IMG/VR virus record: IMGVR_UViG_3300017971_000268
Source of the DNA: an uncultured virus (IMG/VR IMGVR_UViG_3300017971_000268)
Taxonomy: Duplodnaviria; Heunggongvirae; Uroviricota; Caudoviricetes
Strand: one strand, 5' to 3'
DNA length: 64,000 nt
Shown piece by piece: positions 47,557-64,000 of this stretch. Both the position numbers and the translations under genes were made by a program. The notes beneath the pieces were generated by a model. It made no database searches. It was given only the letters and a program-made list of their open reading frames with translations, and was not told where the DNA came from. Numbering within the stretch: the stretch's first letter is position 1; each line of letters starts with the position of its first letter.

Positions 47557-47557
47557 G

Positions 47558-47824: not shown

Positions 47825-47826
47825 TA

Positions 47827-48207: not shown

Positions 48208-48209
48208 AA

Positions 48210-48725: not shown

Positions 48726-49240
48726 TTTTGTTCTTTATTTTCTTCCTCTTCAACGGCTCTCCTTTCATTGTCCATTATTATGTGATGTCTTTTACAGAAC
48801 CAATCAACATCGAGGACTTTCTCTTTCTCATAACTGTAATGATGTGCCTCTAAGTCTTCTGTTTCCCTGCATCTAGGAAATTGACACTTACATCCAGACG
48901 CTATTTTTCCGTTTCGAATTGCTTTGCGAACAGTTTCACGAGCATAAACACGCTCTGGGTAGCGTTCTCTCTCAATCTTTTTGTAATGATAATTGTCCTG
49001 AGAAATCCCCCCTTTCCAATTAGCGTTTTCTTCTCCCGATTTAGATTGTAATCTTTCAATCGCTTCGGGAGATCTCTTTATTTTATATTTCTGCAAAGCA
49101 TTCTTCACTTCCTTTGCTGTTCTATCAAACATATCACCAAGCTCTTGATTAGACTTGGTTTCTGCCAGTTCTCTTAATTGATCCCTTTCAGCTTTAGTCC
49201 ATCCTTTAGTTCGGCTCATCGTACCACCCTCTTTGTTCAT
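48722..49240 (-). CDS. HTH + HNH endonuclease-like protein
   Basis: WTKAERDQL HTH; NANWKGG; CQFPRC...LEAHH...WFCKRHH. Confidence 0.7.
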   Translation of the reverse strand: MNKEGGTMSRTKGWTKAERDQLRELAETKSNQELGDMFDRTAKEVKNALQKYKIKRSPEAIERLQSKSGEENANWKGGISQDNYHYKKIERERYPERVYARETVRKAIRNGKIASGCKCQFPRCRETEDLEAHHYSYEKEKVLDVDWFCKRHHIIMDNERRAVEEEENKEQK

Positions 49241-49297
49241 TTGTTTTTCTCCTCAATATCTTTATCTATCAATCTTCTTAGTTGTATACATTAGGAA

Positions 49298-49828
49298 TCA
49301 AACTCCTTTAAACTTTTTATTAAGCATTTTAACTATATCATTGTGAGTCATAGAGTCTGTTAATACTTTTTCTTCATCCGGTTCATCGTGAAGATACTTT
49401 TCTACCATCCAATATTCATTAGCATCAGGTTTTTCATCATGCATTTTCTTTTCTCTCTTTTCCATATCTTCTTTATAAAACCAGCATCGAGAATCATTTG
49501 CTACACAAATCATACATATAGTCCCTAAGACTCTTTTAATAGTTTCGTAACCTATTTTATCTGTACCATAAATATTTTCCATTCTTTCCCATAAAGAATC
49601 CACATCTTTTTTAGGGGCTTGTCCTGACTCTCCAATTATAAATGCAAATTGAAAATAACCTCCAGAATTCACAATGTTTCTTGAAGATATATATTCCGTA
49701 AAAATTCTTTTAGCTTTGTTGTATGTAGACATGCCCATTTTCTTTTGAGCATTTTTAATAAAATCACTCTTTTCTAATTTGTCCGGTGATATTGAAAAAG
49801 TTTTTTGAAAATTTTTTAAAGGCATCAT
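49298..49828 (-). CDS. hypothetical protein
   Basis: ORF with GAGG RBS. Confidence 0.65.
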   Translation of the reverse strand: MMPLKNFQKTFSISPDKLEKSDFIKNAQKKMGMSTYNKAKRIFTEYISSRNIVNSGGYFQFAFIIGESGQAPKKDVDSLWERMENIYGTDKIGYETIKRVLGTICMICVANDSRCWFYKEDMEKREKKMHDEKPDANEYWMVEKYLHDEPDEEKVLTDSMTHNDIVKMLNKKFKGV

Positions 49829-50151
49829 TTGACCTCCTCATTATTAAATCTTTCAAACACATGATAAACGGTATCTTTTATTATAAAAGTTTTTATATGT
49901 TTTCTAATAATACCTTTATCATATTTGATTTCAGAACCTGTGAAAAACATTTCAAATATCCTCTCTTCAGTATCTTCTTTTGCTTCAATATTTAAAAGAA
50001 CCCAAATATACGGTTTATCATTATGAACAACTATGTCTAATATTTCAGATCCTTTTGGTAAAGTTGCTTTCCACATTCTTCCATAAGTTAAATTGTATTT
50101 CCATACAGTTTTTATAACTGTTATCTCTTTTTTAGATTTTGACTTACTCAT
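49825..50151 (-). CDS. phage hypothetical protein
   Basis: VWKY...LPKGSEIL...TG...VYHVFE. Confidence 0.65.
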   Translation of the reverse strand: MSKSKSKKEITVIKTVWKYNLTYGRMWKATLPKGSEILDIVVHNDKPYIWVLLNIEAKEDTEERIFEMFFTGSEIKYDKGIIRKHIKTFIIKDTVYHVFERFNNEEVK

Positions 50152-50689
50152 TTAGACCCCTCTCTAATTCTTTTAATTCTTTTCTCAAAGATGTCTCACC
50201 TATTCTAAGATAAGCCAACATTATTCTTAATGTTTTATTCTTTCCAGTAACTTTTAATATTTTTTCTGTTAAATTATATTTTCTTCTCCATCCTTGAACA
50301 GATGCCAGAGATATTTCCATTTGCTTTGCCATTTCATAATCATTTAATAGATACTCTCCTTCTTCATCCTTTTTATTAAATTCTAAAAATTGTGCAATCT
50401 TTTCATCTGGCCAAGGTTCTCTTAAAGAACCTCTTCCATTACTATAATTATGATGGTTAAGACGTTCTTTGTTTCTTTCTTCTATTCCATCAGACTTCTT
50501 TTCTTTCCAGTAAGGATGTCTATTTCTAGCATAGTTAATATCATCAGAAGTATACCCTGTAATAATTACCCACCTTCTTGCTATCCTACCTTTTCTTCCA
50601 CTAGGTATAGAACTGTTTAGACACATATCTATAAATTCCATAGGATTTTTTGCGTTTAATATTTCTTCCTCCGTATATCCTTGTTTCAT
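50144..50689 (-). CDS. HTH-like protein, paralog of 53221-53736
   Basis: CLNS...GRK...ARNRHPYWK...WPD. Confidence 0.75.
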   Translation of the reverse strand: MKQGYTEEEILNAKNPMEFIDMCLNSSIPSGRKGRIARRWVIITGYTSDDINYARNRHPYWKEKKSDGIEERNKERLNHHNYSNGRGSLREPWPDEKIAQFLEFNKKDEEGEYLLNDYEMAKQMEISLASVQGWRRKYNLTEKILKVTGKNKTLRIMLAYLRIGETSLRKELKELERGLNE

Positions 50690-50700
50690 TTTAGAACTCC

Positions 50701-51498
50701 TTATCTATGACGAGAACTCCTAATAGCTTCCATAAGCAACCACAATTGTTTATTTAGCTTAACTTCTTGCTGAATGTTATTAATAGTTCTTGTCTTTCTT
50801 TCTCTGTTTGCACTATCAGTATATTCAACGCCACCCTTTATTACATTTTCTTGAATGATATTAAATATTTTCCAGAGATTATCTTCTTTGTCTTCCTCTC
50901 TGCGAGGTTCTATCAACCTCATAGGCTCAATAGATTTATTATCTTCTCCAAATCTTAATAGATGAGCTGATTCCGCTAACCATTTCTTTTCATTGTTTGC
51001 GAGTTTAATTGTTTGGTACTCTTCAATCTTTGAGAAGATTTGTGAGAACCCACTTACGATTTCTGTAATAGCTTTTTCTATACTAATGAAATCAACGTTG
51101 ATATGTTTCACAGAAAGATTGCCGAAGATTTCAACCGGAGTAATCAAACCATTTCCGCACACAAGTTCATTAATAGCAATGCTCATCATTACTCTGTATG
51201 ATCTGTCGTGAGAACCAGTATAATGAAGCTCCGGTATCCTGTCTCCAACTTTTGTGTACTTTGCCTGGTCTGGCGTTCTGAAACGTATTGAGTGTTTTTG
51301 AAAACCCATATACTTTTCATCTCTCGGTATGCTTTGTTTAACTTCTGCGGGATACCAACCAAGCTTTTCCATATCATCTATAATCTTATAGGTTGGTATG
51401 TATACATATTTGTCAGACACATCTTTTGCTGGACTCATAGCATAAACGCTAGGAGCTTTGGCTTTAATTTGTTCTTTGGTTAAAAAAGTATGTTCCAT
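50701..51498 (-). CDS. DUF932/DUF945-family protein
   Basis: APSVYA...SDKYVYIPT...LVCGNGL...PRREED...LWKIFNIIQEN...LNKQLW; start MEHTF after TTAGCAGGAGG. Confidence 0.85.
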   Translation of the reverse strand: MEHTFLTKEQIKAKAPSVYAMSPAKDVSDKYVYIPTYKIIDDMEKLGWYPAEVKQSIPRDEKYMGFQKHSIRFRTPDQAKYTKVGDRIPELHYTGSHDRSYRVMMSIAINELVCGNGLITPVEIFGNLSVKHINVDFISIEKAITEIVSGFSQIFSKIEEYQTIKLANNEKKWLAESAHLLRFGEDNKSIEPMRLIEPRREEDKEDNLWKIFNIIQENVIKGGVEYTDSANRERKTRTINNIQQEVKLNKQLWLLMEAIRSSRHR

Positions 51499-51511
51499 AT
51501 TAATCCTCCTG

Positions 51512-51862
51512 CTAAGAATCAATTCTTAATGGTTTTGTAAATACATCAAGAAGTTTTTTTGCTTTACTTTTATCTTCTTTCTTTTTTACCTTTGCTTTTC
51601 TTGTCTTCCATTTCTTAGAATATGGTGTTACAAGATATCCATCTTTATGCATTTCTGCTTTATGTTCCCATATTAATTGTTTAGTATCTGGTACTAATAA
51701 TGTTTTGGGAGTGCCGTGTGTAGGTTTTCCTTTCTCGTCTACCCTTCTATAAAGAAAAGGACCTTTATCGCCTCTTGTTTTTATTGCGAAGGTTGTTCTT
51801 TCCTCTCTTCGAAATTTATCATAGTATTTAATTTTAACATATTCCATATTACTACCCCTCAA
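51512..51862 (-). CDS. basic hypothetical protein
   Basis: ORF in operon. Confidence 0.6.
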   Translation of the reverse strand: MRGSNMEYVKIKYYDKFRREERTTFAIKTRGDKGPFLYRRVDEKGKPTHGTPKTLLVPDTKQLIWEHKAEMHKDGYLVTPYSKKWKTRKAKVKKKEDKSKAKKLLDVFTKPLRIDS

Positions 51863-52250
51863 ACCAATACATTTCTTCTTTAATCGATTTTAATCTGTTA
51901 ATACATTCAGAAATCAGAATGAAATTGCTTTTTAGTTGAAGTACTAATAAACCGATTGCTTTTTTATTAAAATCGGTTTCTTTTTCTTTTTCTTCCTCTA
52001 GTTCACGAACTGTCTTTGCAACATAGCTTCGACATTTGCCTAGATACGTTCTTAATTTTGTAATGTCTTTTTTGTTTATTGTATGATTCTTTGGGTGAGT
52101 TAATTTATTTATTATATATTTACTATCATCGTCTATTTCAAAGTTTTTAAGATAAGCCAAATCAGAAATCATTGATACGACTTCTGAATCTTTCTGTTCA
52201 TTCTCATTAAATTGATATTCATAATAAGTTACTTTTGATTTTATATCCAT
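51852..52250 (-). CDS. hypothetical protein
   Basis: ORF with AGGAGG RBS. Confidence 0.6.
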   Translation of the reverse strand: MDIKSKVTYYEYQFNENEQKDSEVVSMISDLAYLKNFEIDDDSKYIINKLTHPKNHTINKKDITKLRTYLGKCRSYVAKTVRELEEEKEKETDFNKKAIGLLVLQLKSNFILISECINRLKSIKEEMYWFEG

Positions 52251-53002
52251 TGTAAGAACCTCCTTATAAAATAGTTCTTTTTTACATATCTTTTAATAGC
52301 TTTTTGATATCTCTTCCTTGTAAGAGTTCTCATTCCAGGGGCAGAATTTACTTCGTAAATATAGAAGTTGCCAGTTTCAGAATTAAAACCAACGTCTACT
52401 GCACCAAAGACAAGCCCTAAACATTCAACAGATTTTATTATCTGTTCTTTCATTTCTCGTGGTAATCTTTTCTTATATCTTATATACTTATAACCTTTTT
52501 CTAGATTCTTTATCCAATGAGAATAATAACCTTTTTTTAAAACTTTCTCGTCTGTGTGAAAGACTCTTCCATCCATAACGTGACATCTGTATTCAGTATC
52601 ACATTTTACAAACTCTTCAAAGTAATAATCATCAAAACATCGAGGCAATTCATATTTAGACTCTATTAATCTCATACCTCTCCCTTGAGAATGGTTTGTA
52701 TTTTTAATAACTATAGGAAACGTTTCGGGACAGTTAGTAAAATACTTTGGGGTTGTAATATTATTTTCTACAAAAAGTTTCTTCATTTTTAATTTGTTGA
52801 TGCAATTCCTTATTGATTCTCTAGAATTAAATTCCAAATCACCAATCATGTTTTTATTTTTAAGATATCCAAATCTTATTATGACAGAACATTTGTAGAG
52901 AGGGAATTTAAATTTCTTATGACTTTCGTAATAAGATAAAACAGTAGGACACTCTCTTTCTTTTCTAGTCCAAAAATATTTTAATAGTAAAGCATCAACC
53001 AT
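52241..53002 (-). CDS. ATP-grasp ligase (RimK-like)
   Basis: NKLKMK, FPIVIK..HSQGRG, EYRCHV, FGAVDV, YEVNSAPGM. Confidence 0.85.
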   Translation of the reverse strand: MVDALLLKYFWTRKERECPTVLSYYESHKKFKFPLYKCSVIIRFGYLKNKNMIGDLEFNSRESIRNCINKLKMKKLFVENNITTPKYFTNCPETFPIVIKNTNHSQGRGMRLIESKYELPRCFDDYYFEEFVKCDTEYRCHVMDGRVFHTDEKVLKKGYYSHWIKNLEKGYKYIRYKKRLPREMKEQIIKSVECLGLVFGAVDVGFNSETGNFYIYEVNSAPGMRTLTRKRYQKAIKRYVKKNYFIRRFLQWI

Positions 53003-53005
53003 TAT

Positions 53006-53224
53006 TTACCATCCTATAAATGATTCCCAAACATCAAACGGAACTCTAAAAGATTCTTTAAAAGTTCCAGTTCCATCATCTGCCCTTTTAATAAACTTAT
53101 CATCTTTTATCGTTACCTCTACAGGAATCTTTCTTAATTGTGTTTTGAACATCTTATTTATCTTTTCCAATTTGTGTTCAGTATCAATGTTTGTGATTGT
53201 GTAAACTGTACTTTCTTTCATCAC
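53006..53224 (-). CDS. hypothetical protein
   Basis: ORF in operon. Confidence 0.55.
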   Translation of the reverse strand: MMKESTVYTITNIDTEHKLEKINKMFKTQLRKIPVEVTIKDDKFIKRADDGTGTFKESFRVPFDVWESFIGW

Positions 53225-53736
53225 CCTCTCCTACTCAACTCTCTTAAATGAGCCTCACATCTTTTCATTAATTCAATAAAAGCCTTACTAACTCTTTTTG
53301 TTTTTCTTATCTTAAATATGAGATTTCTTTTTCTCCTCATATGTTGAATACTTGGTATCGTTGTCTCAAACATTTTTGCAAGTTCTCTATCACAATGAAT
53401 ATATTTTCCATTTTTATCTTTCACATCAACTTCTAGAAACTTTTTAATGTCTTTATCGGGCCAAGCTATTCCATGTCCTCTATCTTCTGTGTAGTCAAAC
53501 TCACTCCAACGTGCCATATTTCTAACTTGATATCCTTCCTGTTTCTTTTTCTTCCAGTAAGGGTGTCTGTGTCTTGCATGTTTGATATCTTCTACGGTAT
53601 GACCTGTTTTCTCCATCCACTCTTTTGCGAGAGCAATCTTTCTTCCTCTCTTTATTTTACTATTCAAACACCTATCAATATATTGTTCCGGTGTTTTAGA
53701 ATTAAGTACTTGTCTTTCTGTAAAATTATTTTCCAT
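53221..53736 (-). CDS. HTH-like protein, paralog of 50144-50689
   Basis: CLNS...GRK...ARHRHPYWK...WPD...ELAKMFETTIPSIQ. Confidence 0.75.
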   Translation of the reverse strand: MENNFTERQVLNSKTPEQYIDRCLNSKIKRGRKIALAKEWMEKTGHTVEDIKHARHRHPYWKKKKQEGYQVRNMARWSEFDYTEDRGHGIAWPDKDIKKFLEVDVKDKNGKYIHCDRELAKMFETTIPSIQHMRRKRNLIFKIRKTKRVSKAFIELMKRCEAHLRELSRRG

Positions 53737-53738
53737 TT

Positions 53739-54347
53739 CTACTCCTTTACAATCTTTAAACTTACAATATTCTCTAACTTGAAACCTAATTGTAAAATTT
53801 CTATTTCTTGAAGACCCGTAGAGGTTTGCCTATTATAGGATTCATATCCTTTCTTTGCACTTTCTTGAAGGTAAGGTTCTATTTCTTCATAGTCAACAAC
53901 ACTCTTTCCAGCTTTGTCTGTGGTATACTCAACACCAATTTTAATTCGATCTTTACGAATAGCAAATCGAACATATTCGTCTCCACTATCATCTTCCTTT
54001 TTGTTGTAAAGCATTCCACGAATCTTCTCATACCCAGATTCCTTAAAACCTGTACTACCATCATTCTTTTTTTCTGTGTCTGGATATAATATAAGACCGC
54101 CTTCTTCTGTACACTGTCTGAAATATCCTCTCTCATCATAAACAAGTGTATAGATTGTGTGTTTGTAAGCTTTTTTAGAAGGATTAGAGCCGCCTTCTTT
54201 CATTTTAGGAAGTTCTTCTTTAGAAACCCCCTGTTTTTTCAGATAGTTCCTTTTATTGAGGACTTTCGCATCACTACGATACTTTAATTCGAATTTCGTT
54301 CCGTTAGTTATACCTAACGCATTTTCCCTAATAATCTCCTGTTTCAT
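53739..54347 (-). CDS. hypothetical protein with its own promoter and operator
   Basis: TTAGCAGGAGG RBS; promoter upstream. Confidence 0.75.
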   Translation of the reverse strand: MKQEIIRENALGITNGTKFELKYRSDAKVLNKRNYLKKQGVSKEELPKMKEGGSNPSKKAYKHTIYTLVYDERGYFRQCTEEGGLILYPDTEKKNDGSTGFKESGYEKIRGMLYNKKEDDSGDEYVRFAIRKDRIKIGVEYTTDKAGKSVVDYEEIEPYLQESAKKGYESYNRQTSTGLQEIEILQLGFKLENIVSLKIVKE

Positions 54348-54380
54348 CCTAAACCTCCTGCTAAAAAGTAAATTGAATGA

Positions 54381-54427
54381 TAACTAATGTATACATTCAA
54401 TATACATTAGTTACTCGAAATTGTCAA
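54381..54427 (-). promoter_or_regulatory. promoter overlapped by a 13-bp inverted-repeat operator
   Basis: TTGACA-N17-TATATT on - strand; TAACTAATGTATA-N7-TATACATTAGTTA at 54381-54413. Confidence 0.8.
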
Positions 54428-54867
54428 TCATTTTTTTGTAAAATTATTAATTTTTTATTCAAATTATTAACTGTAGCCCTCACAAAATCTATAGCACCTT
54501 TCATTTCAGAATCAAAGCTTTCCCAATGCTCTGGATAATTCTCTGTGCATTCCCATTCGTCAAGATTTACTGTACCAGACCATAAAAAACCTAGTTCTAG
54601 AAAGGCTATTTCGAAATTGTTTAATACTTCAACAGCTCTTTTTAACTTTTCTATCTTTTCTGATTCTAGATTCCAGGACAATTCTACTCCACAATGAGGA
54701 CAGTATTTAAAAGTGATATGTATAACATCACATTTGCATAAAGGACATCCAAAATATTCATCATCTTGTTTCATATCCTCTGTCATTATAACTATTTCAT
54801 TCATTTTTACTCCTCCTTTAGAATGGTATGTCTCCATCATAAAATGGATTTGGTATAAGTTCTCCAT
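54424..54867 (-). CDS. hypothetical protein with zinc ribbon
   Basis: CPLC...YCPHCG; start probably MNEIV after AGGAGG. Confidence 0.6.
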   Translation of the reverse strand: MENLYQIHFMMETYHSKGGVKMNEIVIMTEDMKQDDEYFGCPLCKCDVIHITFKYCPHCGVELSWNLESEKIEKLKRAVEVLNNFEIAFLELGFLWSGTVNLDEWECTENYPEHWESFDSEMKGAIDFVRATVNNLNKKLIILQKND

Positions 54868-55054
54868 TTTCCATTTTCATATACTTTCTGCTTCCTTTCC
54901 TAGCCTCTCGGATACGAGACGCAACCAATTCTGCTATATCTGGATTAGTTTTTAAGATGTCTATAATTTCGTCTACGGATGCAACTTCTAGCTGAACAAT
55001 TATATCACTGATGAATTTTTGTATAGCATCTTTTAAATCTTTACTAAATCTCAT
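54818..55054 (-). CDS. small protein ending in DGDIPF
   Basis: AGGAG RBS; SSB-tail-like C-terminus. Confidence 0.65.
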   Translation of the reverse strand: MRFSKDLKDAIQKFISDIIVQLEVASVDEIIDILKTNPDIAELVASRIREARKGSRKYMKMENGELIPNPFYDGDIPF

Positions 55055-55082
55055 AGTTATCTCCTATAAATAAAATAAGTAA

Positions 55083-55104
55083 GCCACCGAAATGGTTCGG
55101 TGGC
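55083..55104 (-). terminator. intrinsic terminator
   Basis: GCCACCGAA/TTCGGTGGC stem, T-rich tail on - strand. Confidence 0.8.
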
Positions 55105-55113
55105 GAACTTCTG

Positions 55114-55968
55114 TTATTCATAGTAATAAATCAAAGGTGCTACAAAATTGTCTGGAACACCAACTACCGCACCGTTGTCAGTAACATACTCCAACTTTCG
55201 TACTGTTATATTATTCACTGTTTGTGTAGTACATCCGTTTTCATTTGAAAAACTTGAGAATGTCATAACACTTTGGGTTATGTTGTCGTCAAGCTGGAAG
55301 TATTTACCATTATCAACATTCTTTAACAATCTTTTTCTACTGGCTGAATGTGTATTTACATTAACGTATGCAACGTTTCCACTACAATCAAAATTAGTGT
55401 AGAAGATATTATCTGTATAAAAAGATATTTCTCCAGCGTTGCTTTTAACAGCATAAAAGTACCCTTCTGGTGAAAGAATGTAATCGGTGTCTATAGACGT
55501 ACCTAAAAATTCTCCAAGTACTACTCCATTACCATCCTTAACTTTCAACGTTTTGTTATGAACAAGAATCTCCCAACTGTCTCCATCCCAAATATATGCT
55601 GTACTATTATCCGTGTTATAATAAGCATCGTTTAAATTTGGGCTACTTGGGATACTTTCATTATCGAAGTATCCAAGCCAATTAATGGAAATGCCATCCG
55701 TACCATCCGTACCATCTGTACCATTTAAGTTAATGGTATGATAATCTGTTCCATCACAATACTGAAACTCTTGCAAATCTATAATATAATATAGAAATCC
55801 ATCCGTTTCGTTATTGCAAGTTGGAAGATCATCTGCTGTAAGAATAACCCTTGCGGGATTTCCGCTTACGTCTTTACCTGAAGAAATAATTTCCCCTTCT
55901 TCAGGAGCTTCAGCACATCCCATTAGTGCAACAGCAACCAGTGTTAGAATAATAAATGTTTGTTTCAT
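55114..55968 (-). CDS. lipoprotein with short collagen-like repeat
   Basis: MKQTFIILTLVAVALMG-C lipobox; GTDGTDGTDG. Confidence 0.8.
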   Translation of the reverse strand: MKQTFIILTLVAVALMGCAEAPEEGEIISSGKDVSGNPARVILTADDLPTCNNETDGFLYYIIDLQEFQYCDGTDYHTINLNGTDGTDGTDGISINWLGYFDNESIPSSPNLNDAYYNTDNSTAYIWDGDSWEILVHNKTLKVKDGNGVVLGEFLGTSIDTDYILSPEGYFYAVKSNAGEISFYTDNIFYTNFDCSGNVAYVNVNTHSASRKRLLKNVDNGKYFQLDDNITQSVMTFSSFSNENGCTTQTVNNITVRKLEYVTDNGAVVGVPDNFVAPLIYYYE

Positions 55969-56001
55969 CTTTTCCTCCTGCTAAATTTGTTTTGATTCTA
56001 A

Positions 56002-56517
56002 CTAAACTATTACTACCTCCTTATCAAATTTTTCTTTGTTTCCCTCCTTTCATAAGTGATATTGATTTGTAGTATCTACCAACCTACTTTGTGCTGGATA
56101 TAATTCCACAGCTTCATTTTCTTCTCCAATTAATTCATTTTTTATTCTTTGGAAATGTCTCCAATCTCTGACAGGATGCTTGTCTAATCTTTTAATAGAC
56201 AAATGCAACATTTTAGGAAACCCCTTTGGAGTTTCTTCGTTAAAGATGCTGACCTAGTACAAATTATTAACCCAAATTTCGCACTCAAAACTTCTTTTCA
56301 GTACCTTGTCAACGGTGAACGATTCCCACCCTCGCTCAAGGAGTTCCTCTCGCAACTCCGAGATTTGCGATTGGGTTGGTACAGTTCCTTTTTTGAAAAG
56401 TGTACATTCTTTTGGTTTTCTTCTCCGATTCTTTTTCATACGCACACTCCTTATCAAAGACTCAATCGAGACACCTTGATAAAGGTGTCCCTGTTCAGTC
56501 TCTAACTGTACTTCCAA
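56002..56517 (-). pseudogene. phage protein gene interrupted by in-frame TAG and TGA
   Basis: EIWVNNLY-TAG(56254-56256)-VSIF...MLHLSIKRLDKHPVRDWRHFQRIKNELIGEENEAVELYPAQSRLVDTTNQYHL-TGA(56050-56052). Confidence 0.65.
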
Positions 56518-57098
56518 TGGATATCCTCGTGGAGAGCCATTTCTGATTCATAATCATAATTAAATATATGACCATTATGACACTCTCTAATCTGATGTCC
56601 TTTGTAAAGTTCCTCTACCACTTTAGACATTGCGTTACAGAAAGGACACCTTATCTTTTGGTATTTCTTTCTCTTGTAGTATTGTTCAATGTTAAGACTT
56701 TCGTGAGGGACGATTTCTTGGTTCTCAACTTTACCTTGTTCCCTCATTTTCTCTTCGTTTTTAATTTGTTCAATAAGTCTTTTGTTAAGAACCTCACCAC
56801 AATTACAACATCTAATTCTTTTGGGAACCCACGTCTTACAGCCTTCGCAATAGACTCCGTGTTGTTTGTAGTATTCAATAACTTCATTTGCCTCTTTCTC
56901 TATGTAATGCTGTTTGGTTTTTATACCAAAAAGCAAACAAAAGAATTTCCAAATAGTTTTGAGAACAACAATAATCACTTCTATGATTGTTTTAAATATC
57001 CAAACAATTCCTACAGCGATTATACCTCCGATAAATAAGGAGATAGAAGCTTTTGCTAAACTTCCTATAAAATTAAAAAGCTTATCTAAAGTGTTCAT
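56502..57098 (-). CDS. membrane protein with zinc ribbons
   Basis: N-terminal TM; CEGC, CCNC, CPFC, ECHNGH. Confidence 0.65.
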   Translation of the reverse strand: MNTLDKLFNFIGSLAKASISLFIGGIIAVGIVWIFKTIIEVIIVVLKTIWKFFCLLFGIKTKQHYIEKEANEVIEYYKQHGVYCEGCKTWVPKRIRCCNCGEVLNKRLIEQIKNEEKMREQGKVENQEIVPHESLNIEQYYKRKKYQKIRCPFCNAMSKVVEELYKGHQIRECHNGHIFNYDYESEMALHEDIHWKYS

Positions 57099-57108
57099 CT
57101 TTTACCTC

Positions 57109-57336
57109 CTATGGTCCAAACAACAATTTAAAAAACGGTCCGAAGAGTGGTATTATTAAATATTCAAACACAAGAAGTGCTGAAATGATAGTGCCTAGTA
57201 TATATCCAATTATACCATAAGGCATAGTGCTTCCAACAAGATACCAGAATTGGTGCCTTCTTACTAAGCCTCTTCTCTCGCTAGAGTCCCTCTCGTAGTG
57301 ATGACCGACGTTTTTTAAGTATCTTTCTTTGTTCAT
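57109..57336 (-). CDS. membrane protein
   Basis: Hydrophobic C-terminal half; AGGAGG RBS. Confidence 0.6.
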   Translation of the reverse strand: MNKERYLKNVGHHYERDSSERRGLVRRHQFWYLVGSTMPYGIIGYILGTIISALLVFEYLIIPLFGPFFKLLFGP

Positions 57337-57338
57337 AT

Positions 57339-57590
57339 TTAACCTCCTACTAAAACGCTTACTATACAGAAAAGAACATAAAAAACAAAAAGTATTACTG
57401 GCAGTACAAATAATATAAAAAAGAATACATATATTATTGATACAGAAGAAAGAAATCCTCCGACTGCCATCCAGAAACCAGCTTTTCTTCTTTTATCTTC
57501 AAGTGTTGGCTCATGATAATCAATTCTCATCATTTGTTTGCCTCCTTTATTAATGTTCTGTTCCCCTGTCTTTAATTCCTGCGGGGTCAA
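57339..57590 (-). CDS. membrane protein
   Basis: Hydrophobic C-terminal half; start probably MMRID. Confidence 0.6.
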   Translation of the reverse strand: MTPQELKTGEQNINKGGKQMMRIDYHEPTLEDKRRKAGFWMAVGGFLSSVSIIYVFFFILFVLPVILFVFYVLFCIVSVLVGG

Positions 57591-58080
57591 TTACTTCTAA
57601 ATATATTCCAAGTCCACTTATAATATCATTATAAGGTAACTTTAAGAAATCAATGATTTCTATAAACATTTTTATTATCATTGAATTAGGTACGCTTACG
57701 TTAGCAATTAATGGGGTTATCGAAATAAATAAAGACAATGCTTTGTGTATTGGATTATCGTTATCTATTACTTGAACAAATCCTGAGATAGAAAGTAAAC
57801 TTTCCTTTATTATTTTAGGACTTCCTCCAATATTCAAATCCTTTTGAACTCTATCCATCATAAAATTATCAAAAGAAATCTCAAGAGTTTTATCCAAAAT
57901 AGAAAAGACAAACAAAGAAAAGTAATCTTGTTTGTTTTCCATAGTAAGATTCTCAAAAGTTTCTCCCACTTTTTCAAAACCTTCTTCTCTAAGAGTTTTA
58001 TTCAAACTATCAAGAAAGCTTTTGTAATCTTTATCATTTAAATTCAATGCTTCAAATAAAGTTTCTTTTTTGTGATCCAT
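57550..58080 (-). CDS. hypothetical protein
   Basis: Coupled ORF. Confidence 0.6.
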   Translation of the reverse strand: MDHKKETLFEALNLNDKDYKSFLDSLNKTLREEGFEKVGETFENLTMENKQDYFSLFVFSILDKTLEISFDNFMMDRVQKDLNIGGSPKIIKESLLSISGFVQVIDNDNPIHKALSLFISITPLIANVSVPNSMIIKMFIEIIDFLKLPYNDIISGLGIYLEVIDPAGIKDRGTEH

Positions 58081-58277
58081 TAGTTTACCTCACTATTCCT
58101 ATCGTTTGATTCTTTAAATGCCTTTAGCTCTTTTTCAACAGCATCAGTAAAAATTCTGCTGTTGTAACCCATAATTAATTGATTCTTTTCTTTAATCATC
58201 TTCTTGTACTCATCATACAAGTTATCGTCTACGCTAACTTTTATAACCATTTTAATTCCTCCGAAATATAAACTCAC
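58080..58277 (-). CDS. RHH-like protein
   Basis: VIKVSVDDNLYDEYKKMIKEK...SRIFTDAVEKEL. Confidence 0.6.
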   Translation of the reverse strand: MSLYFGGIKMVIKVSVDDNLYDEYKKMIKEKNQLIMGYNSRIFTDAVEKELKAFKESNDRNSEVN

Positions 58278-58285
58278 TCTATTAT

Positions 58286-58314
58286 AATATAACTAAATTT
58301 CCCTTTTTTGTCAA
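58286..58314 (-). promoter_or_regulatory. sigma70-like promoter
   Basis: TTGACA-N17-TATATT on - strand. Confidence 0.7.
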
Positions 58315-58388
58315 CAAAAATTCCCCAAAAAGTACCTAAAAATTCCTCAAAAAGGGAATTTTATTACCTTGAAATTTTAAATTTTTAG

Positions 58389-58417
58389 TTGACTTTTGTG
58401 ACATAACTATTTAAATT
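58389..58417 (+). promoter_or_regulatory. divergent sigma70-like promoter with no + strand ORF downstream
   Basis: TTGACT-N17-TAAATT. Confidence 0.55.
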
Positions 58418-58421
58418 GTAA

Positions 58422-58583
58422 AAAAGATATAAAAACGTAGTCACACCTATGTTTCTACTCCGATATCTTTTATACACACAAAGTAACTATCTTTAAACCT
58501 CCTGCTAAAAACAGTTTAAAGATAAAAGACGGAACAAAGCCTTTTCCTCGCCAGAGTATGTCCAAGGAAAAGGCTTTTCTTTT
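58422..58583 (+). ncRNA. candidate three-hairpin small RNA with anti-RBS loop
   Basis: Stems 58422-30/58463-71, 58488-98/58514-24 (loop CTCCTGCTAAAAACA) and 58536-48/58565-77 followed by a U tract. Confidence 0.6.
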
Positions 58584-58609
58584 ATTTATCTCGGATACGA
58601 GATAGATAA

Positions 58610-58951
58610 TTATATTTTAGGCAATCTCCCACAACCTTCAAGTTTTGAAATATCAACTCCCTTGTAACGCATTTTTTTAACGAATTCTTCTTCACAGGTT
58701 TTACTACAAGCGTAACCTTCACTATACTCATCTGAAATATGTATAGTGTCAATTGCTTTATGTTCCTTCTTACAAACATTACATCTTACAATTTCAGCAT
58801 CCCAGTATTGACATACATTTCCTACATAATCTTCAACAGCATCACAACCCTCAATCATTGGCGGTTCTCCTGGTTCCCATTGTGTATCGGGATAACCTTT
58901 TGTTCTATGATTTACAGAGTGTTTGCAGTTCCAACAAGATTTGTTATTCAT
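58610..58951 (-). CDS. Cys-rich hypothetical protein
   Basis: CWNCKH, CNVC, ACSKTC; GGAGG RBS. Confidence 0.65.
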   Translation of the reverse strand: MNNKSCWNCKHSVNHRTKGYPDTQWEPGEPPMIEGCDAVEDYVGNVCQYWDAEIVRCNVCKKEHKAIDTIHISDEYSEGYACSKTCEEEFVKKMRYKGVDISKLEGCGRLPKI

Positions 58952-59025
58952 TATTAACCTCCATTGAGAGATAGTTATTAACTCTGAAACCAGGACATGT
59001 CCGATTTCAGGGTTGAAAATTATCT

Positions 59026-59397
59026 CTACGTGATTGTTATTTCTATCTCAAAACTACCATCACCACCTGTATTAATTGTGTGATAGTGTTTACTTTCTGA
59101 ACGGAGATAGAAAGTTTTCTTTAGAAAGTCAGTCCAAACAGTTCCCTCATTAGAGAATAGATATCCAACATCTCCAACAACTATTTCTCCGTTTGTTTCA
59201 ATTGTTGTCTCTCCTTTGAGTTCTCCTAGCCAACAATCTTTTATATGATACTTAACTTTCCTTAATCCTTTCTCAACTTTCACAAGAGTACAATTTCCAC
59301 CGGAATTATCAATGTTACCTCCATAATGTTTTATAAAATCGTGGTCGGTAATTGATATGTTTCCGGCATCAACTGGAAATGTTTCTGTTATTTTCAT
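59026..59397 (-). CDS. hypothetical protein
   Basis: VDAGNI...D...GY...TGGDGSF. Confidence 0.7.
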   Translation of the reverse strand: MKITETFPVDAGNISITDHDFIKHYGGNIDNSGGNCTLVKVEKGLRKVKYHIKDCWLGELKGETTIETNGEIVVGDVGYLFSNEGTVWTDFLKKTFYLRSESKHYHTINTGGDGSFEIEITIT

Positions 59398-59570
59398 ATA
59401 TACTCCTTTACAAATAGTTTCAAATCACCTTTCTTGTAAAAGGTTTTATATGTTGGATTTTTTTTCTTAACATTCTTTTCGTAGTTTATTGCATTTTCTT
59501 CCGTAGCAAAAAATTCATTTGCTACAACTTCACAATCGGCATTAATAACAGTAACTACCCAAACTTCCAT
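59394..59570 (-). CDS. small hypothetical protein, 58 aa
   Basis: MEVWVVTV...FFATEENA; AGGAGG RBS; ATGA coupling. Confidence 0.6.
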   Translation of the reverse strand: MEVWVVTVINADCEVVANEFFATEENAINYEKNVKKKNPTYKTFYKKGDLKLFVKEYI

Positions 59571-59651
59571 AAGTTTCCTCCTAACAAACTGACATTAAAA
59601 ACAATAAAAATCCTCCGATTTATAATTAATTTTTTTTCTGTTACATCTATC

Positions 59652-59987
59652 TTAAACCCCTTGAACATTTATTCTATTACCGTTACTATTAACAACCATA
59701 CCTTCTTCAAAGACACAATCATCATTATACAACCAAGTACCTCTGTGTTGATACACATTTATGGGTGAGAATCTATTGATTCTTTCTTTAGTAGTAGGAG
59801 TTCTCCAACCACCAGTATGAAGTTCATAGTAGTCATTTGGTTTAATGATAATGATGTCTGTTCTATGCAAACATATATGGTAGTTATGGCCGTTCTTATA
59901 AAGCCTAGTATTATTAGCAATAGGCTTACCTTTTTCTTTATCCTTTGCACTTTCATATAGTTCTTTTGCTTCATTATACGTTAGCAT
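59652..59987 (-). CDS. phage hypothetical protein
   Basis: NNTRL...LHRTDII...GGWRTPTTKERINRF. Confidence 0.75.
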   Translation of the reverse strand: MLTYNEAKELYESAKDKEKGKPIANNTRLYKNGHNYHICLHRTDIIIIKPNDYYELHTGGWRTPTTKERINRFSPINVYQHRGTWLYNDDCVFEEGMVVNSNGNRINVQGV

Positions 59988-59993
59988 ATCTAT

Positions 59994-60046
59994 ACCTCCT
60001 TGAAATATTATTTGTTCTGGTTTTATTTAAAAAACATTTAACGCTC
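59994..60046 (-). repeat. 53-bp 5' leader repeat, copy 1
   Basis: 35 of the first 38 nt identical to 63123-63175. Confidence 0.8.
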
Positions 60047-60110
60047 TTTATATTATTTCTTAACTCACCAATATCATCTACATAATCAATTACTAAATCA
60101 AAGCAAGAAT

Positions 60111-60521
60111 CTACGTCTGTGAATAAAAGCCTTGATCCTTTGCATCCTCACTACTTTCCCAACCAAAGTAATCGTTATCTTCATAACACTTGCTATGAAA
60201 TAACTTAATGAATTGGCTGTTTTTGGGATTCCCCTCACCACTCCAAATCATTTTGATATACTTTAGTCTTATTTCTTCGTGCTTTTCTTCATCTTTTCTT
60301 AACTTCTTATACTTTTTAATGTTTCCTTTAAGATACATAAGTACCATAATATCCCACTCACCATCATCGTTTAGAATCGCCCCATATCCATCATAACTAC
60401 CCTCTATAGTCTGTCCATTAGGTAGTAACAATGTGCATTGGTTCAATTCCATAGGTGGATGGTCATAAGGGTTTTTAATAGAAACACCACATACCGGACA
60501 TTCCCACGAATATAATCCCAT
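60111..60521 (-). CDS. phage hypothetical protein
   Basis: MGLYSWECPVC...YDGYG...H..C...DQGF. Confidence 0.7.
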   Translation of the reverse strand: MGLYSWECPVCGVSIKNPYDHPPMELNQCTLLLPNGQTIEGSYDGYGAILNDDGEWDIMVLMYLKGNIKKYKKLRKDEEKHEEIRLKYIKMIWSGEGNPKNSQFIKLFHSKCYEDNDYFGWESSEDAKDQGFYSQT

Positions 60522-60525
60522 ATCT

Positions 60526-60840
60526 TTACCTCCTCTTTTTATAAATCTTTTCTAAAGTATCTAATAAGTTGTCTGATAAATTAAATAATAACCTATAGCT
60601 AATTTTAACTTTCCCACTCTCTATATTAGATATATATTGCTGTGTACAACCCATTTTATCCGCAAGTTCTTTTTGAGTTAATCTACATAACATCCTTATG
60701 TATATAATGGTATCACCATCAAACATTTTAACTGAATCTATTGCTTTTTTTATTTCCCCTAAATCGTTCACTATCTTTAGCATACTCTCTATGTGATATC
60801 CCATACCTTTACCTCCATCTATAGCTTTAATTTGTTCCAT
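60526..60840 (-). CDS. XRE-family HTH protein
   Basis: LTQKELADKMGCTQQYISNIESGK. Confidence 0.85.
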   Translation of the reverse strand: MEQIKAIDGGKGMGYHIESMLKIVNDLGEIKKAIDSVKMFDGDTIIYIRMLCRLTQKELADKMGCTQQYISNIESGKVKISYRLLFNLSDNLLDTLEKIYKKRR

Positions 60841-61301
60841 TGTATAGAATTATTATCTATACTTATTTCAAACACACCTATCATATTACACTTTTTACAC
60901 ATCACCTCTATACTAGCCTTACTTTCACTTTTAGATAGTTTAGTTAAATGTTTACACGCTTTTATACTATTTTTATCTAGTATATGGTCGCAATTTATTT
61001 TATTATTAACATCCTTAACAATGTCTAATAAACTAATCAAAACCTTTATAGAAGCCTTTTCTCTACCAGACTCTATATGACTTAGATATTGTTGAGTTAT
61101 TCCAAGAGCTTTGGCAAACTCAATTTGAGTCATTCTAACAAAACTTCTTATTCTTTTAAAAGTCATACCTCCAAAATCCTCTATTATATTAACAGACTCC
61201 TCAACAGTCCTTAACTCCTTTTCCCATAATAAAAACATTTTCTTTCTATTTCTACGATTTCTGTCTACCATACCTTTGAAAACCCTTCGTTTCTCGACCA
61301 T
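60819..61301 (-). CDS. XRE-family HTH protein
   Basis: MTQIEFAKALGITQQYLSHIESGR. Confidence 0.85.
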   Translation of the reverse strand: MVEKRRVFKGMVDRNRRNRKKMFLLWEKELRTVEESVNIIEDFGGMTFKRIRSFVRMTQIEFAKALGITQQYLSHIESGREKASIKVLISLLDIVKDVNNKINCDHILDKNSIKACKHLTKLSKSESKASIEVMCKKCNMIGVFEISIDNNSIQWNKLKL

Positions 61302-61389
61302 TCACTAACCTCCTTTAAATATAAATAATCTTTATCTAACCTACCACATTGGATAGGTTAGCTACTGACTATTTATACATTAAATACTG

Positions 61390-61632
61390 TTATCTTATTA
61401 CATCAGTTACGCAAACAACTTCGTCAGAATTAGGGTTTAAATCATTCCAAAAAGACTCATACTTTTCCTTAACACCTTGCTCAGTATCAATACCTGTAAA
61501 CAAGCTATTAGTATCAGTATCAATCATTTCTATTCTTGACTCACCAACAACCTCGTTGGTTTCCCTATCTCTTGCGAGTGCAGTTACATAGAATAACATA
61601 TTAAACCTCCATTTCAAATAGACATTCTGCAA
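61390..61632 (-). CDS. hypothetical protein
   Basis: Start probably MLFYV after GGAGG. Confidence 0.6.
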   Translation of the reverse strand: MQNVYLKWRFNMLFYVTALARDRETNEVVGESRIEMIDTDTNSLFTGIDTEQGVKEKYESFWNDLNPNSDEVVCVTDVIR

Positions 61633-62071
61633 TTATCCATTCCACGTCTTTTTCTTTCCAAGATTTTTTTATTTCTTCATAGTCATATCCATAGGAACAT
61701 AGAACATCAATTATTTGATCTTCTGTATAATCATTTAGATTAACAGTTTCTCTTATATGTTGTACTGTGCCATCTGGATATTTAACATCCTCCATAAATT
61801 CATATAGTTCATCACTTATTTTTCTTCCATACTGATTAAATGATGGGTCAGTTAATGTCCATACTGAAAGTGGTACTGGTTTTCCTTTTTCGTTCTTTCC
61901 AGTTTTAAGTATTTCTTTTCCACCACATTTATCAGTATCTTTGTATTCACAACGCAGACAGTATTCTATGCCGTGAAATTGAACTAACCAACATTCTGCT
62001 GTTAAATCAGACTGTTGGATAGTTTTTACATTACTGAGTTGACCATCTTCTCTTAAATTTTTTATTTTCAT
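61601..62071 (-). CDS. hypothetical protein
   Basis: ECW...C..C....KCGG; IIAECLFE. Confidence 0.65.
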   Translation of the reverse strand: MKIKNLREDGQLSNVKTIQQSDLTAECWLVQFHGIEYCLRCEYKDTDKCGGKEILKTGKNEKGKPVPLSVWTLTDPSFNQYGRKISDELYEFMEDVKYPDGTVQHIRETVNLNDYTEDQIIDVLCSYGYDYEEIKKSWKEKDVEWIIAECLFEMEV

Positions 62072-62130
62072 ATTAAACCACCTCCTTGATTAAAACTTGT
62101 GCCGACTCTCAACGAGAGCCAGCATAAATT

Positions 62131-63117
62131 TTACTCGCCTAATATTTTAACATCAACATCTTTGTTATCACCAATGATTGATTTAACCAGAGCAGTCATG
62201 TTCTGACCAATTCTGATTGCATCTTCTGGGTTTGCCAGACCAAACCCTTCACCATTGAAACCATCCATCATGGTATCAGGAGTCATCTCATACTTAGCAA
62301 ATCTGGTAATGTTAAGTTGATCTGTTCTTGTCAAAAGTAAGGGGTCATAGCCAGGTGGATTCATAATGTTATGGATACAAAAGTATGGATTTCTTTTGTT
62401 ATTCTTCATGAAGATAGGTCGTATTCTTTCCAACACTATCTTGAGATCATGAAGTTTCTCGTCAAGATATTTAAGCATACTCTCACCATAGTTATTACCA
62501 AATTTTAAGTCTTGTGCTATGTCCTTATCCAATCCTTTTAACTCTTTCAGCTTACGCAGAAAGTGTGGCTTACTAAGAAGTGTCATCCCAGCATATCGAA
62601 AGATGTCTTCTTTAATATCATGTAGGTCTGGGAGTGCTTTACCATTTCTTATTATCAAATTGCAAAGAAGAAATCTGCCCTCATCACTAACAGTAATATC
62701 AGCTTTAGGTATGGCTTTTGATATGTCTATCAGTGCCAATATGACAAGCAAACTATTGTACTCATTGCCCTGTACCTTACAGAAGGCACGTGCTTGTTTT
62801 TTAGGATTATCATTACGAAATGATATGTATCCAGCCTTTTTGAGTTCTCTGCATGTCTTGGCATGATCTCTGTTTTTGGCAAAGATTTCTGAATATCTTT
62901 TGCCTACTATCTCCCATGCCTTGTCCCTATATTTATTTATTAATGGGTTATCCCATTTAGGATAATAACTATAAGGATCAAGCCAGAAGTTTTCACATGA
63001 CCATACATCTTTAAACTTACCGCTGTTGTAATGTAGAGTGATCTCATACATCTTATTGATTTGAGAATCTGTAAATGGTTTATCAGGCGTAACCGTAAAG
63101 TGTAATGTTCTACCCAT
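62131..63117 (-). CDS. hypothetical protein (start MGRTLHF)
   Basis: AGGAGG RBS before ATG 63117; FCKVQGNE, VSDEG. Confidence 0.75.
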   Translation of the reverse strand: MGRTLHFTVTPDKPFTDSQINKMYEITLHYNSGKFKDVWSCENFWLDPYSYYPKWDNPLINKYRDKAWEIVGKRYSEIFAKNRDHAKTCRELKKAGYISFRNDNPKKQARAFCKVQGNEYNSLLVILALIDISKAIPKADITVSDEGRFLLCNLIIRNGKALPDLHDIKEDIFRYAGMTLLSKPHFLRKLKELKGLDKDIAQDLKFGNNYGESMLKYLDEKLHDLKIVLERIRPIFMKNNKRNPYFCIHNIMNPPGYDPLLLTRTDQLNITRFAKYEMTPDTMMDGFNGEGFGLANPEDAIRIGQNMTALVKSIIGDNKDVDVKILGE

Positions 63118-63122
63118 AATTA

Positions 63123-63175
63123 ACCTCCTTGAAATATTACCTGTTTTGGTTTTATTTAAATACACATTAAAGCTC
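63123..63175 (-). repeat. 53-bp 5' leader repeat, copy 2
   Basis: See copy 1. Confidence 0.8.
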
Positions 63176-63215
63176 TGAAACTTTTATCTACCTATAGTAT
63201 CGACACCTCTACCAT

Positions 63216-63255
63216 TTTACTTTAGTACTTTTTTGTTTACTTTAATACTTTTTTG
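63216..63255. repeat. 2 x 20-bp AT-rich direct repeat
   Basis: TTTACTTTAGTACTTTTTTG / TTTACTTTAATACTTTTTTG. Confidence 0.8.
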
Positions 63256-63332
63256 TGACCAACAATATATTTATATAAACATAAAACTACTATGTGTACA
63301 TAACCCCTATTTTTGACATTTGCGAATAACGA

Positions 63333-63387
63333 CGCCTAAACCTTCGCCTAAACCTTCGCCTAAACCTTCGCCTAAACCTTCGCCTAA
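63333..63387. repeat. 12-bp tandem repeat, about 4.5 copies
   Basis: (CGCCTAAACCTT)4 CGCCTAA. Confidence 0.95.
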
Positions 63388-63499
63388 GATTGGCGGAAAA
63401 ATGTGCGGAAGTGGCCAAATTTCCGTGCCAAAAAATTTTTTTCACAGTTGCGACTACCGACCTCATTGCCGAATAACGACCGCAAAAGTTTTTGCTGAA

Positions 63500-63527
63500 G
63501 TCTTTGCCCAAAATTTTGGGCAAAGAC
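63500..63527. repeat. perfect 28-bp palindrome
   Basis: GTCTTTGCCCAAAA|TTTTGGGCAAAGAC. Confidence 0.95.
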
Positions 63528-63797
63528 ATTTGCGACTAACTACCCTAAATTAAACAACTACTTTTGCGACTAACTATCCTTTTGCGACTAACTATCGCCA
63601 AGATTTTGGCGAAGGTCCTTTGCTGAAGTTTGGTTAGGTCGTTAGTCGCTGTTGTGTCGTTACTCGAAATATTTACAATGCCGACTAACTACCTCATTAG
63701 CGACTAACTACCTAGCACCAAATTGACTGCTGTTATTTTACATTTGCGACTAACTACCACATTTGCGACTAACTACCACATTTGCGACTAACTACCA
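63527..63797. repeat. iteron-like array of GCGACTAACTA
   Basis: Exact copies at 63532, 63566, 63584, 63700, 63746, 63765, 63784; (CATTTGCGACTAACTACCA)3 at 63741-63797. Confidence 0.92.
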
Positions 63798-64000
63798 AAC
63801 ATGAAAAAAACAGAACAGGTTTTTGATTTCTTAGGTGTTTTATTGTTTGGGCGTGCCTCTTGCCCCGATTCGCACCCTCGTTATAGCTGCAAAACTATTG
63901 ACTAATATGTATATATAGGAGTGTATCCTTTTATATACAGAATATTATTTAAATCCTGAAACTCTATTGAGAACAATTTCAGAGCTTAAATAGGCTTCTG

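Follow-up and report, generated by a model that had tools for sequence, protein, structure and literature searches.

A candidate small RNA in an uncultured phage, with a loop complementary to an extended ribosome-binding site that recurs in the phage's own genome

What is encoded in a 359-bp gap between two genes of a phage arm in which the neighboring genes all read from the minus strand? The gap (58251-58609) is flanked by the minus-strand genes 58610-58951 and 58080-58250 in a 64,000-nt stretch of DNA from an uncultured phage of the Caudoviricetes (IMG/VR virus record IMGVR_UViG_3300017971_000268). We call this whole stretch the window; positions 1-63375 of it form the right-hand end of the 217,703-bp record, which has a CheckV completeness of 88% and a G+C content of 31%. 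A first-pass annotation, made from the letters alone, had proposed that 58389-58583 encodes a trans-acting small RNA (sRNA) whose loop is antisense to an extended ribosome-binding site (RBS) shared by four phage genes. Our analysis of the locus, 58389-58589, indicates that a plus-strand non-coding RNA is probably made from 58424-58589. The further claim, that this is a trans-acting anti-Shine-Dalgarno (anti-SD) sRNA that represses a regulon of seven phage genes, is in our judgment evenly poised. A search for sequencing runs that contain the stretch returned no RNA run and three DNA runs; the contigs of these three are identical, with zero variants in 58389-58609.

The elements of the plus-strand unit are as follows, in window coordinates.

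58389-58417, plus strand: promoter of the candidate sRNA (-35 TTGACT at 58389-58394, 17-nt spacer, -10 TAAATT at 58412-58417)
58433-58454, plus strand: 5' hairpin of 8 pairs, including one G.U
58488-58524, plus strand: middle or seed hairpin, with a perfect 11-bp stem (58488-58498/58514-58524) and a 15-nt loop (58499-58513)
58536-58589, plus strand: intrinsic terminator, with a 13-bp perfect stem (58536-58548/58565-58577) and the tail UCUUUUAUUUAU

The plus-strand promoter that the first-pass annotation had placed inside the minus-strand arm scores 9/12 in generic sigma-70 scoring, and it belongs to a strict class in this phage, defined as TTGAC[AT]-N17-TA[AT]A[AT]T and usually found behind a T-rich tract; such a tract lies just 5' of 58389-58417. 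Base composition predicts 1.97 sites of this class on both strands of the 217,703 bp; there are 9, of which 7 fall in intergenic DNA, a fraction amounting to 7.6% of the genome. Five of these seven stand 30-146 nt upstream of a same-strand gene, among them 58314-58286 and 54427-54399, the latter belonging to the best predicted target gene discussed below. The remaining two, 58389-58417 and a site at genome positions 72-100, face no gene. We infer a predicted start of the candidate RNA near 58424. No plus-strand open reading frame (ORF) of at least 25 aa is present between 58420 and 58583, as had been noticed before; by eye we find only a 15-codon ATG frame at 58450, which lacks a Shine-Dalgarno (SD) sequence. 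The U tract reported for the last hairpin is likewise there. The stem 58536-58577 is directly trailed by TCTTTTATTTAT, with 9 T in the next 12 bases on the plus strand, and with its G+C-containing stem and U tract it has the makeup of a Rho-independent terminator. At -16.9 kcal/mol, it was called on the plus strand only in a genome scan that returned 34 terminator-like sites; its minus-strand tail is TTTGTTCCGTC (also read as UUUGUUCCGUC). Promoter, hairpins, and terminator define a unit of ~160 nt on the strand opposite to all neighboring genes. A promoter and a terminator of its own together with absent coding capacity, as expected of an sRNA gene, are all found in silico.

The plus strand of the unit folds into three hairpins (58433-58454, 58488-58524, and 58536-58577), in agreement with the earlier description, with a minimum free energy of -38.6 kcal/mol and a z-score of -5.52, against -3.79 for the minus strand; none of 200 shuffles was as stable as the plus strand. 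In the centroid fold, the 5' hairpin is enclosed by a longer-range stem, 58425-58431/58463-58469, and its G.U pair becomes an A.C mismatch on the minus strand, which interrupts the stem there. The 11-bp stem of the seed hairpin is perfect, as had been claimed, with the arms TATCTTTAAAC/GTTTAAAGATA and the loop CTCCTGCTAAAAACA (also given as CUCCUGCUAAAAACA), and the loop bases 58499-58513 have a predicted unpaired probability of 0.59-1.00.

This 15-nt loop is complementary to an 11-base motif, TTAGCAGGAGG, with its core at 58498-58508. In the window, TTAGCAGGAGG occurs exactly at 41682(+), 51505(-), 54354(-), 55974(-), and 58498(-), and allowing up to one mismatch gives 6 sites against 0.60 expected, a number reached by 0 of 100 shuffles. 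Genome-wide there are 7 exact copies and 0 of a control pattern read backwards. Of these, six precede an ATG by 5-8 nt; the remaining copy is the orphan displayed by the seed hairpin. Among the 1-mismatch sites, 57343-57353(-) alone belongs to an RBS, and its C-to-T change retains pairing with the loop G as a G.U wobble; the genome has two others, neither of them at the start of a gene. All four RBSs that the first-pass annotation had named carry the motif, but the set is larger than four, with six exact sites plus the wobble site, two of them outside the window.

The UUAGCA extension of these sites is far commoner than chance. A genome-wide count of the motif at gene starts, which had been suggested as a check, gives TTAGCA directly upstream in 6 of the 72 GGAGG-type RBSs (GGAGG sites followed by an ORF of at least 40 aa) and any other hexamer at most 2 times. 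When the columns of the six extension positions were shuffled 20,000 times, the largest class never reached 6; the maximum was 5, in 9 shuffles. The phage relies heavily on SD pairing: 83% of 296 genes pair with the generic anti-SD core at -4 kcal/mol or lower, against 20% of control positions inside genes. These 296 genes are a crude ORF-based call, so counts over them are approximate, and the calling cut-off of 50 aa means that small genes can be missed. The general SD consensus of the phage is AAGGAGGT, as the usual anti-SD tail would predict. The GCA at -3 to -1 of the motif is not a partner of that 16S tail, and the other phage RBSs prefer A there, which bears out the earlier remark that the usual 16S anti-SD leaves the extension unexplained. 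In the portion available to us of a survey of ~6,400 genomes, anti-SD variants extend as CCUCCUUU(C) (PMC10783764). A non-canonical host anti-SD that would explain the extension is unlikely, judging solely by the phage's own SD consensus, which speaks against it.

The genes whose RBSs carry the motif, and one promoter, are listed here; net energies include the opening cost of both RNAs.

54350-54367, minus strand: motif RBS of gene 53739-54347 (202 aa, no family); duplex -27.4, net -15.6 kcal/mol
54427-54399, minus strand: class promoter of gene 53739-54347
55974-55984, minus strand: motif RBS of gene 55114-55968 (284 aa); net -16.1 kcal/mol, rank 1/296
51505-51515, minus strand: motif RBS of the DUF932 gene 50701-51498; net -7.9 kcal/mol, rank 11
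41682-41692, plus strand: motif RBS of the gamma-glutamyl cyclotransferase-like (GGACT-like) gene 41700-42092; net -15.0 kcal/mol
57343-57353, minus strand: variant RBS TTAGTAGGAGG of a 75-aa membrane-like gene, 57109-57336; net -12.6 kcal/mol, rank 6
Outside the window: exact TTAGCAGGAGG RBSs of the genes at genome 124705-125448 and 148627-149178

Positions 58494-58511 are letter-for-letter the plus strand of 54350-54367, so that in the RNA they complement 18/18 bases at the minus-strand RBS of gene 53739-54347, exactly as the first-pass annotation had stated. With 18 contiguous pairs, this gene is the best predicted target. We paired a 20-nt stretch around the loop with positions -35 to +20 of the 296 genes. 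Duplex energies for the seven translation initiation regions run from -20.3 to -27.4 kcal/mol, and the next is -16.9 (mean -9.25, sd 3.5, n = 296). Once corrected for accessibility, six motif genes take ranks 1-6 of 296 (-16.1 to -12.6 kcal/mol), and the first non-motif gene after them has a net energy of -9.1 kcal/mol. The predicted duplexes reach from about -21 to about -2, counted from the start codon. These energies restate the motif and are not independent evidence; what they do show is a suitable geometry. The RNA has, in silico, a single-stranded seed complementary to the RBSs of several mRNAs encoded elsewhere, as is characteristic of trans-acting sRNAs, and it is encoded 0.9 to 87 kb from its predicted targets. 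Full-length RNAduplex runs of the sRNA against the targets were dropped, as they gave unrealistic end-to-end duplexes.

Some details of the target genes can be added. The N-terminus of the product of gene 55114-55968, MKQTFIILTLVAVALMGC, resembles a lipoprotein signal, and the TAG within the motif of the DUF932 gene is the stop codon of the upstream ORF. By eye, we see no shared sequence downstream of the seven motif genes and no shared promoter or other motif upstream of their RBSs. At 56016-56020(-), ~40 nt before the motif RBS of the lipoprotein-like gene, there is another orphan SD (AAGGAGGT) that lacks a start codon, and ATAGTT comes after both this orphan and the one in the sRNA hairpin.

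The promoter class, terminator, fold, motif enrichment, and pairing energies are computed properties of the locus; the mechanism that we propose adds to them the synthesis of the RNA, its pairing in vivo, the repression that would result, and the timing, all of which are predictions from sequence. In this mechanism, 58424-58589 (+) would be an independent gene for a ~160-nt non-coding RNA, transcribed by the host RNA polymerase from the early-type phage promoter 58389-58417 and ending at the terminator 58536-58589. The middle hairpin would present a 15-nt single-stranded loop containing CCUCCUGCUAA, and the loop would pair with the SD and its 6-nt upstream extension (UUAGCA-GGAGG) on seven phage mRNAs. 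Pairing over about -21 to -2 would keep the 30S subunit off and lead to less translation and probably to less mRNA stability. An sRNA made early would accumulate and mask the SD of the seven mRNAs, with gene 53739-54347 as the strongest target. Selectivity would come from the UUAGCA extension, since the GGAGG core alone would touch many phage mRNAs.

Several points weigh against regulation by such an sRNA, and the first is the uniformity of the motif itself. Known sRNA target sets are less uniform than these six 11-mers, which are identical to the letter and would be explained just as well by copying of an RBS cassette or by a protein operator; the orphan would then be one more copy. The plus-strand RNA could be real and its anti-RBS loop incidental, either functionless or a leftover copy of the TTAGCAGGAGG RBS cassette, which might have arisen when the start region of gene 53739-54347 was duplicated. 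Other roles for the RNA would then be antisense action on transcripts reading through from the minus-strand operon upstream, insulation between the two operons, or protein binding. The six identical 11-mers do suggest copying over convergence, and the 18-nt identity with the start region of gene 53739-54347 suggests common descent. The orphan also has the orientation and layout of a real RBS, with ATA 7 nt after GGAGG where the look-alike gene has ATG 6 nt after it, and there are other intergenic orphan GGAGG sites, of which 28 are listed under a crude annotation that may miss small genes. What such an origin leaves unexplained is the perfect 11-bp inverted repeat that frames exactly the complementary bases in a loop, and why the likeness to the donor ends after 18 nt. 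Moreover, a promoter cannot fit between the terminator (58536) and the site, and there is no decayed ORF, the frame closing after 6 codons at TAA. We think this explanation unlikely, though far from negligible.

The same invariance could mark a protein site. TTAGCAGGAGG might serve as operator for an RNA-binding protein, encoded by the phage or the host, that regulates translation. The seven genes would then form a regulon under protein control, and the RNA would only titrate or mimic the site; to this we give a slim chance. The strict invariance of the 11-mer at 6 RBSs would suit an operator, as would the heterogeneous gene set, which recalls a temporal class, and most genes of the arm are without known function, which leaves room for an unrecognized RNA-binding protein. 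The known families of translational repressors, CsrA, RegA, and Hfq, were however not found. The sole variant, C-to-U, keeps RNA pairing and alters a base that a protein would read, although with n = 1 this is weak. An exact antisense copy in the exposed loop of a promoter-terminator unit is needed by an RNA regulator and not by a protein model.

A second group of points concerns the strand. Because the 5' flank of the terminator 58536-58577 is rich in A (ACAAA) and its minus-strand tail begins with UUUGUU, it may also, or mainly, end the upstream minus-strand gene 58610-58951; in the genome terminator scan, several terminators were bidirectional. The hairpin could act on the minus strand, in read-through RNA from gene 58610-58951, as an orphan SD displayed in a loop. 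It would then bind 30S subunits and stabilize the downstream RNA, or serve as a decoy or operator for a factor that recognizes UUAGCAGGAGG, CsrA included. The motif is indeed on the minus strand, as are five of its RBS copies, and the loop contains GGA. Read-through is conceivable since no strong minus-strand terminator follows gene 58610-58951, and the minus strand folds well too (-47.7 kcal/mol, z-score -3.79). We nevertheless regard action on the minus strand as decidedly unlikely. Viewed on that strand, the seed hairpin sits between the end of the upstream gene and the class promoter 58314-58286; being upstream of this promoter, it is outside the mapped minus-strand unit rather than inside its transcript. 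The STAB-SD element of cryIIIA is an orphan SD that binds 30S subunits and stabilizes downstream RNA; an element of this type lacks a start codon and is part of the 5' untranslated region of the mRNA that it stabilizes. None of ATG, GTG, and TTG stands at SD distance from the orphan in the hairpin, which is however located ~185 nt upstream of the -35 of the 58314-58286 promoter, outside that mRNA. The CsrA decoy that the first-pass annotation had offered as its own alternative is not supported. Decoys of the CsrB/RsmZ type carry many short GGA loops, whereas here there is a single hairpin with a 15-nt loop, and searches at E up to 1 found no gene for CsrA, RegA, or Hfq in the 88%-complete genome. 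Action on the minus strand would also leave the plus-strand promoter and the asymmetric T tract unexplained.

The remaining points against the sRNA reading are more scattered. Generic sigma-70 matches are not enriched in intergenic DNA (68/930, or 7.3%, against an intergenic share of 7.6%). Five of the 18 pairing bases (58494-58498) are in the stem, with an unpaired probability of 0.00-0.14, and the seven motif genes have no evident common function. The idea of the first-pass annotation stood as far as the plus-strand promoter, the terminator, the lack of an ORF, the unpaired loop, the enrichment, and the top predicted targets are concerned; it did less well for the DUF932 gene, which drops to rank 11 when target structure enters the energy, since its site is predicted to be folded.

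Finally, no relative of the locus and no phage close enough for an intergenic comparison was found in the collections searched. A blastn search of 58200-58700 against the phage collection gave zero matches, and in IMG/VR the flanking proteins matched 0 loci and the exact 29-mer of the seed hairpin had 0 matches. The 17-mer AAACCTCCTGCTAAAAA was found at 10 loci in IMG/VR, all unrelated and without the hairpin by eye. In the JGI metagenomes the loop 17-mer occurs at 68 loci, several of which are CCTCCTG...CAGGAGG terminator hairpins; only the phage's own contig aligns over more than 31 nt or has the stem. The 113-aa neighbor protein found only itself among 5.8 billion proteins in a near-length search. 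The sliding clamp had no match in isolate phages or IMG/VR, the best identities of the helicase and recombinase were at most 29%, and that of the DUF932 protein was at most 34%, its sole IMG/VR match being an unrelated phage without the motif. Rfam, which includes the C4 antisense RNA and RsaE families, gave 0 matches at the gathering score in the whole window (Rfam 15), and with E up to 10 in 58200-58700 the best score was 22.4 bits against a cut-off of 50. No tRNAs are present in the window.

How does the candidate compare with known systems? The c4 RNA is processed from the same transcript as its target operon, sar and OOP are encoded opposite their target (cis-antisense) with one target each, and T4 RegA is a protein that shuts off translation of a set of phage early mRNAs at their initiation regions. 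As described in the portion available to us of a review of phage RNAs, the loop sequences of the P1/P7 c4 antisense RNA pair around the RBS of a phage mRNA and block its translation in a structure-dependent manner, and c4 controls one operon (icd/ant) in the immunity region of temperate phages (PMC12197685). Insofar as this description goes, the candidate resembles c4 in being a phage RNA with a loop complementary to an RBS. Unlike c4, it has its own promoter and terminator and seven scattered site-bearing genes, in a phage without integrase or resolvase. The staphylococcal-type model of the Rsa RNAs (RsaE) and RNAIII is a 5' hairpin, an unpaired C-rich UCCC loop, and a classical 3' terminator; their loops bind the SDs of several mRNAs and prevent formation of the initiation complex, with specificity from SD-neighboring bases, according to the part of the source at hand (PMC2790875). 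On that account, the candidate shares the 5' hairpin, the unpaired C-rich loop, and the 3' terminator. Those RNAs are bacterial, with a short UCCC and loosely related targets, whereas the candidate is viral, with the seed CCUCCUGCUAA and identical 11-mer targets. It is a member of neither the c4 nor the Rsa family by sequence or covariance model, and it differs from both as a unit of a virulent-type giant phage directed at the phage's own scattered genes through a shared identical 11-mer.

The same review portion describes P22 sar and lambda OOP as small phage RNAs that lower phage protein synthesis by pairing with mRNA, and DicF, VpdS, and PreS as phage-borne trans-acting base-pairing sRNAs, of which DicF blocks ftsZ translation; the described targets of these three are mainly host genes, and they are Hfq-dependent (PMC12197685). 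Unlike sar and OOP, the candidate has several predicted targets, 0.9 to 87 kb away, and unlike DicF, VpdS, and PreS as described there, its predicted targets are the phage's own genes. It would also differ from RegA in that the regulator would be an RNA; a RegA homologue is absent from the genome. The table of phage sRNAs in that review, as far as available, lists none with a multi-gene self-regulon (PMC12197685). Our literature search for a phage sRNA self-regulon likewise found none, which is not proof of absence.

To our knowledge, post-transcriptional control in lytic phages is known mostly from proteins (RegA, RegB), and temperate phages have single-target antisense RNAs. That an invariant 11-nt "address" (UUAGCA + GGAGG) is placed on chosen genes of a virulent giant phage and read by one early sRNA loop is a tentative proposal, to which we give somewhat less than an even chance. 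If true, it would be an RNA counterpart of protein translational repressors such as T4 RegA, providing a timed shut-off of a scattered regulon; it would mean that large phages can build their own sRNA networks, and it would explain the stereotyped non-16S RBS extensions on some phage genes. It would also provide a search rule by which such regulators and their targets could be found in uncultured phage genomes: look between promoters and terminators for a hairpin whose loop carries, in antisense and as an orphan, a copy of an RBS variant that is over-represented. For engineering, it would be a compact orthogonal translational switch.

The remaining features of the gap and its surroundings are listed below.

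58582-58609, strand unassigned: second hairpin/palindrome, centered on TCTCGGATACGAGA, with TTATATTTTA next on the plus strand
58294-58363: repeats between the divergent promoters, AAAAATTCC(C/T)CAAAAAG twice, 22 nt apart, and inverted TAAATTTCCCTTTTT/AAAAAGGGAATTTTA
58286-58314, minus strand: divergent promoter TTGACA-17-TATATT (11/12, strict class), which drives gene 58080-58250
58080-58250, minus strand: gene for a 56-aa protein, first gene of the minus-strand unit
40715-41497, in the plus-strand half of the window: phage sigma factor

The hairpin 58582-58609 may be a back-up plus-strand terminator or a DNA site, the latter in view of its palindrome, which recurs in the genome. This palindrome, TCTCG-GATA-CGAGA(C), has 9 copies in the 218-kb genome (8 for the 12-mer TCGGATACGAGA), at 58589-58603, at 54906-54920, and at seven places elsewhere; the first of these forms a hairpin immediately after the sRNA terminator. 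Most copies fall within coding sequence of one strand or the other, which suggests a site read in the DNA (an operator or the target of an endonuclease or methylase) and not an RNA hairpin.

Gene 58080-58250 starts 36 nt downstream of the divergent promoter 58314-58286. Its 56-aa product may be a small repressor of one or both divergent promoters, and the repeats 58294-58363 are possibly operators, perhaps for this protein. The structure model is of low confidence (pLDDT 64), with an N-terminal extended segment and helices 9-25 and 32-55, and the sequence has zero matches in Pfam, PHROGs, and PDB; with this pLDDT and no such match, a ribbon-helix-helix identity remains a guess.

Downstream of the strict-class promoter at genome 72-100 (TTGACA-17-TAAAAT), outside the window, lie ~95 nt that are G+C-rich and structured, include a terminator-like hairpin (-35.5 kcal/mol, z-score -3.61), and have no Rfam match; region 72-200 of the genome is probably a second phage non-coding RNA, going by these features. 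Three class promoters have in common TATATT followed by (G/T)AATGTA(T/C)AC, which contains the palindrome TGTATACA, at window 54399-54385, genome 126132-126118(-), and genome 130954-130968(+); this shared box may be a common operator or an initial transcribed box.

In the wider setting, the plus-strand half of the window carries replication genes, several of them interrupted by inteins or homing endonucleases, with ribonucleotide reductase, DNA polymerase, helicase, and terminase among its genes. The enlarged ribonucleotide reductase, DNA polymerase, replicative helicase, and large terminase (5435-11245, 22939-28722, 32933-35467, and 42425-45442) match Hint, LAGLIDADG, or HNH, which points to multiple inteins or homing endonucleases. 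From 45429 to 63529 almost all genes are small, on the minus strand, and of unknown function. A search of the phage for an integrase or resolvase found none, which makes a virulent lifestyle probable. The window runs 625 bases (63376-64000) past the end of the 217,703-bp record, and the neighboring 113-aa protein is also recorded on a 234,748-bp contig, from which the true genome would be larger than the record. One small gene falls below the 50-aa cut-off of the gene call, a 46-aa membrane-like ORF at 16814-16954 with its own SD, and a promoter-like TTGACT-17-TACATT site (window 16685-16954) stands 100 nt before it.

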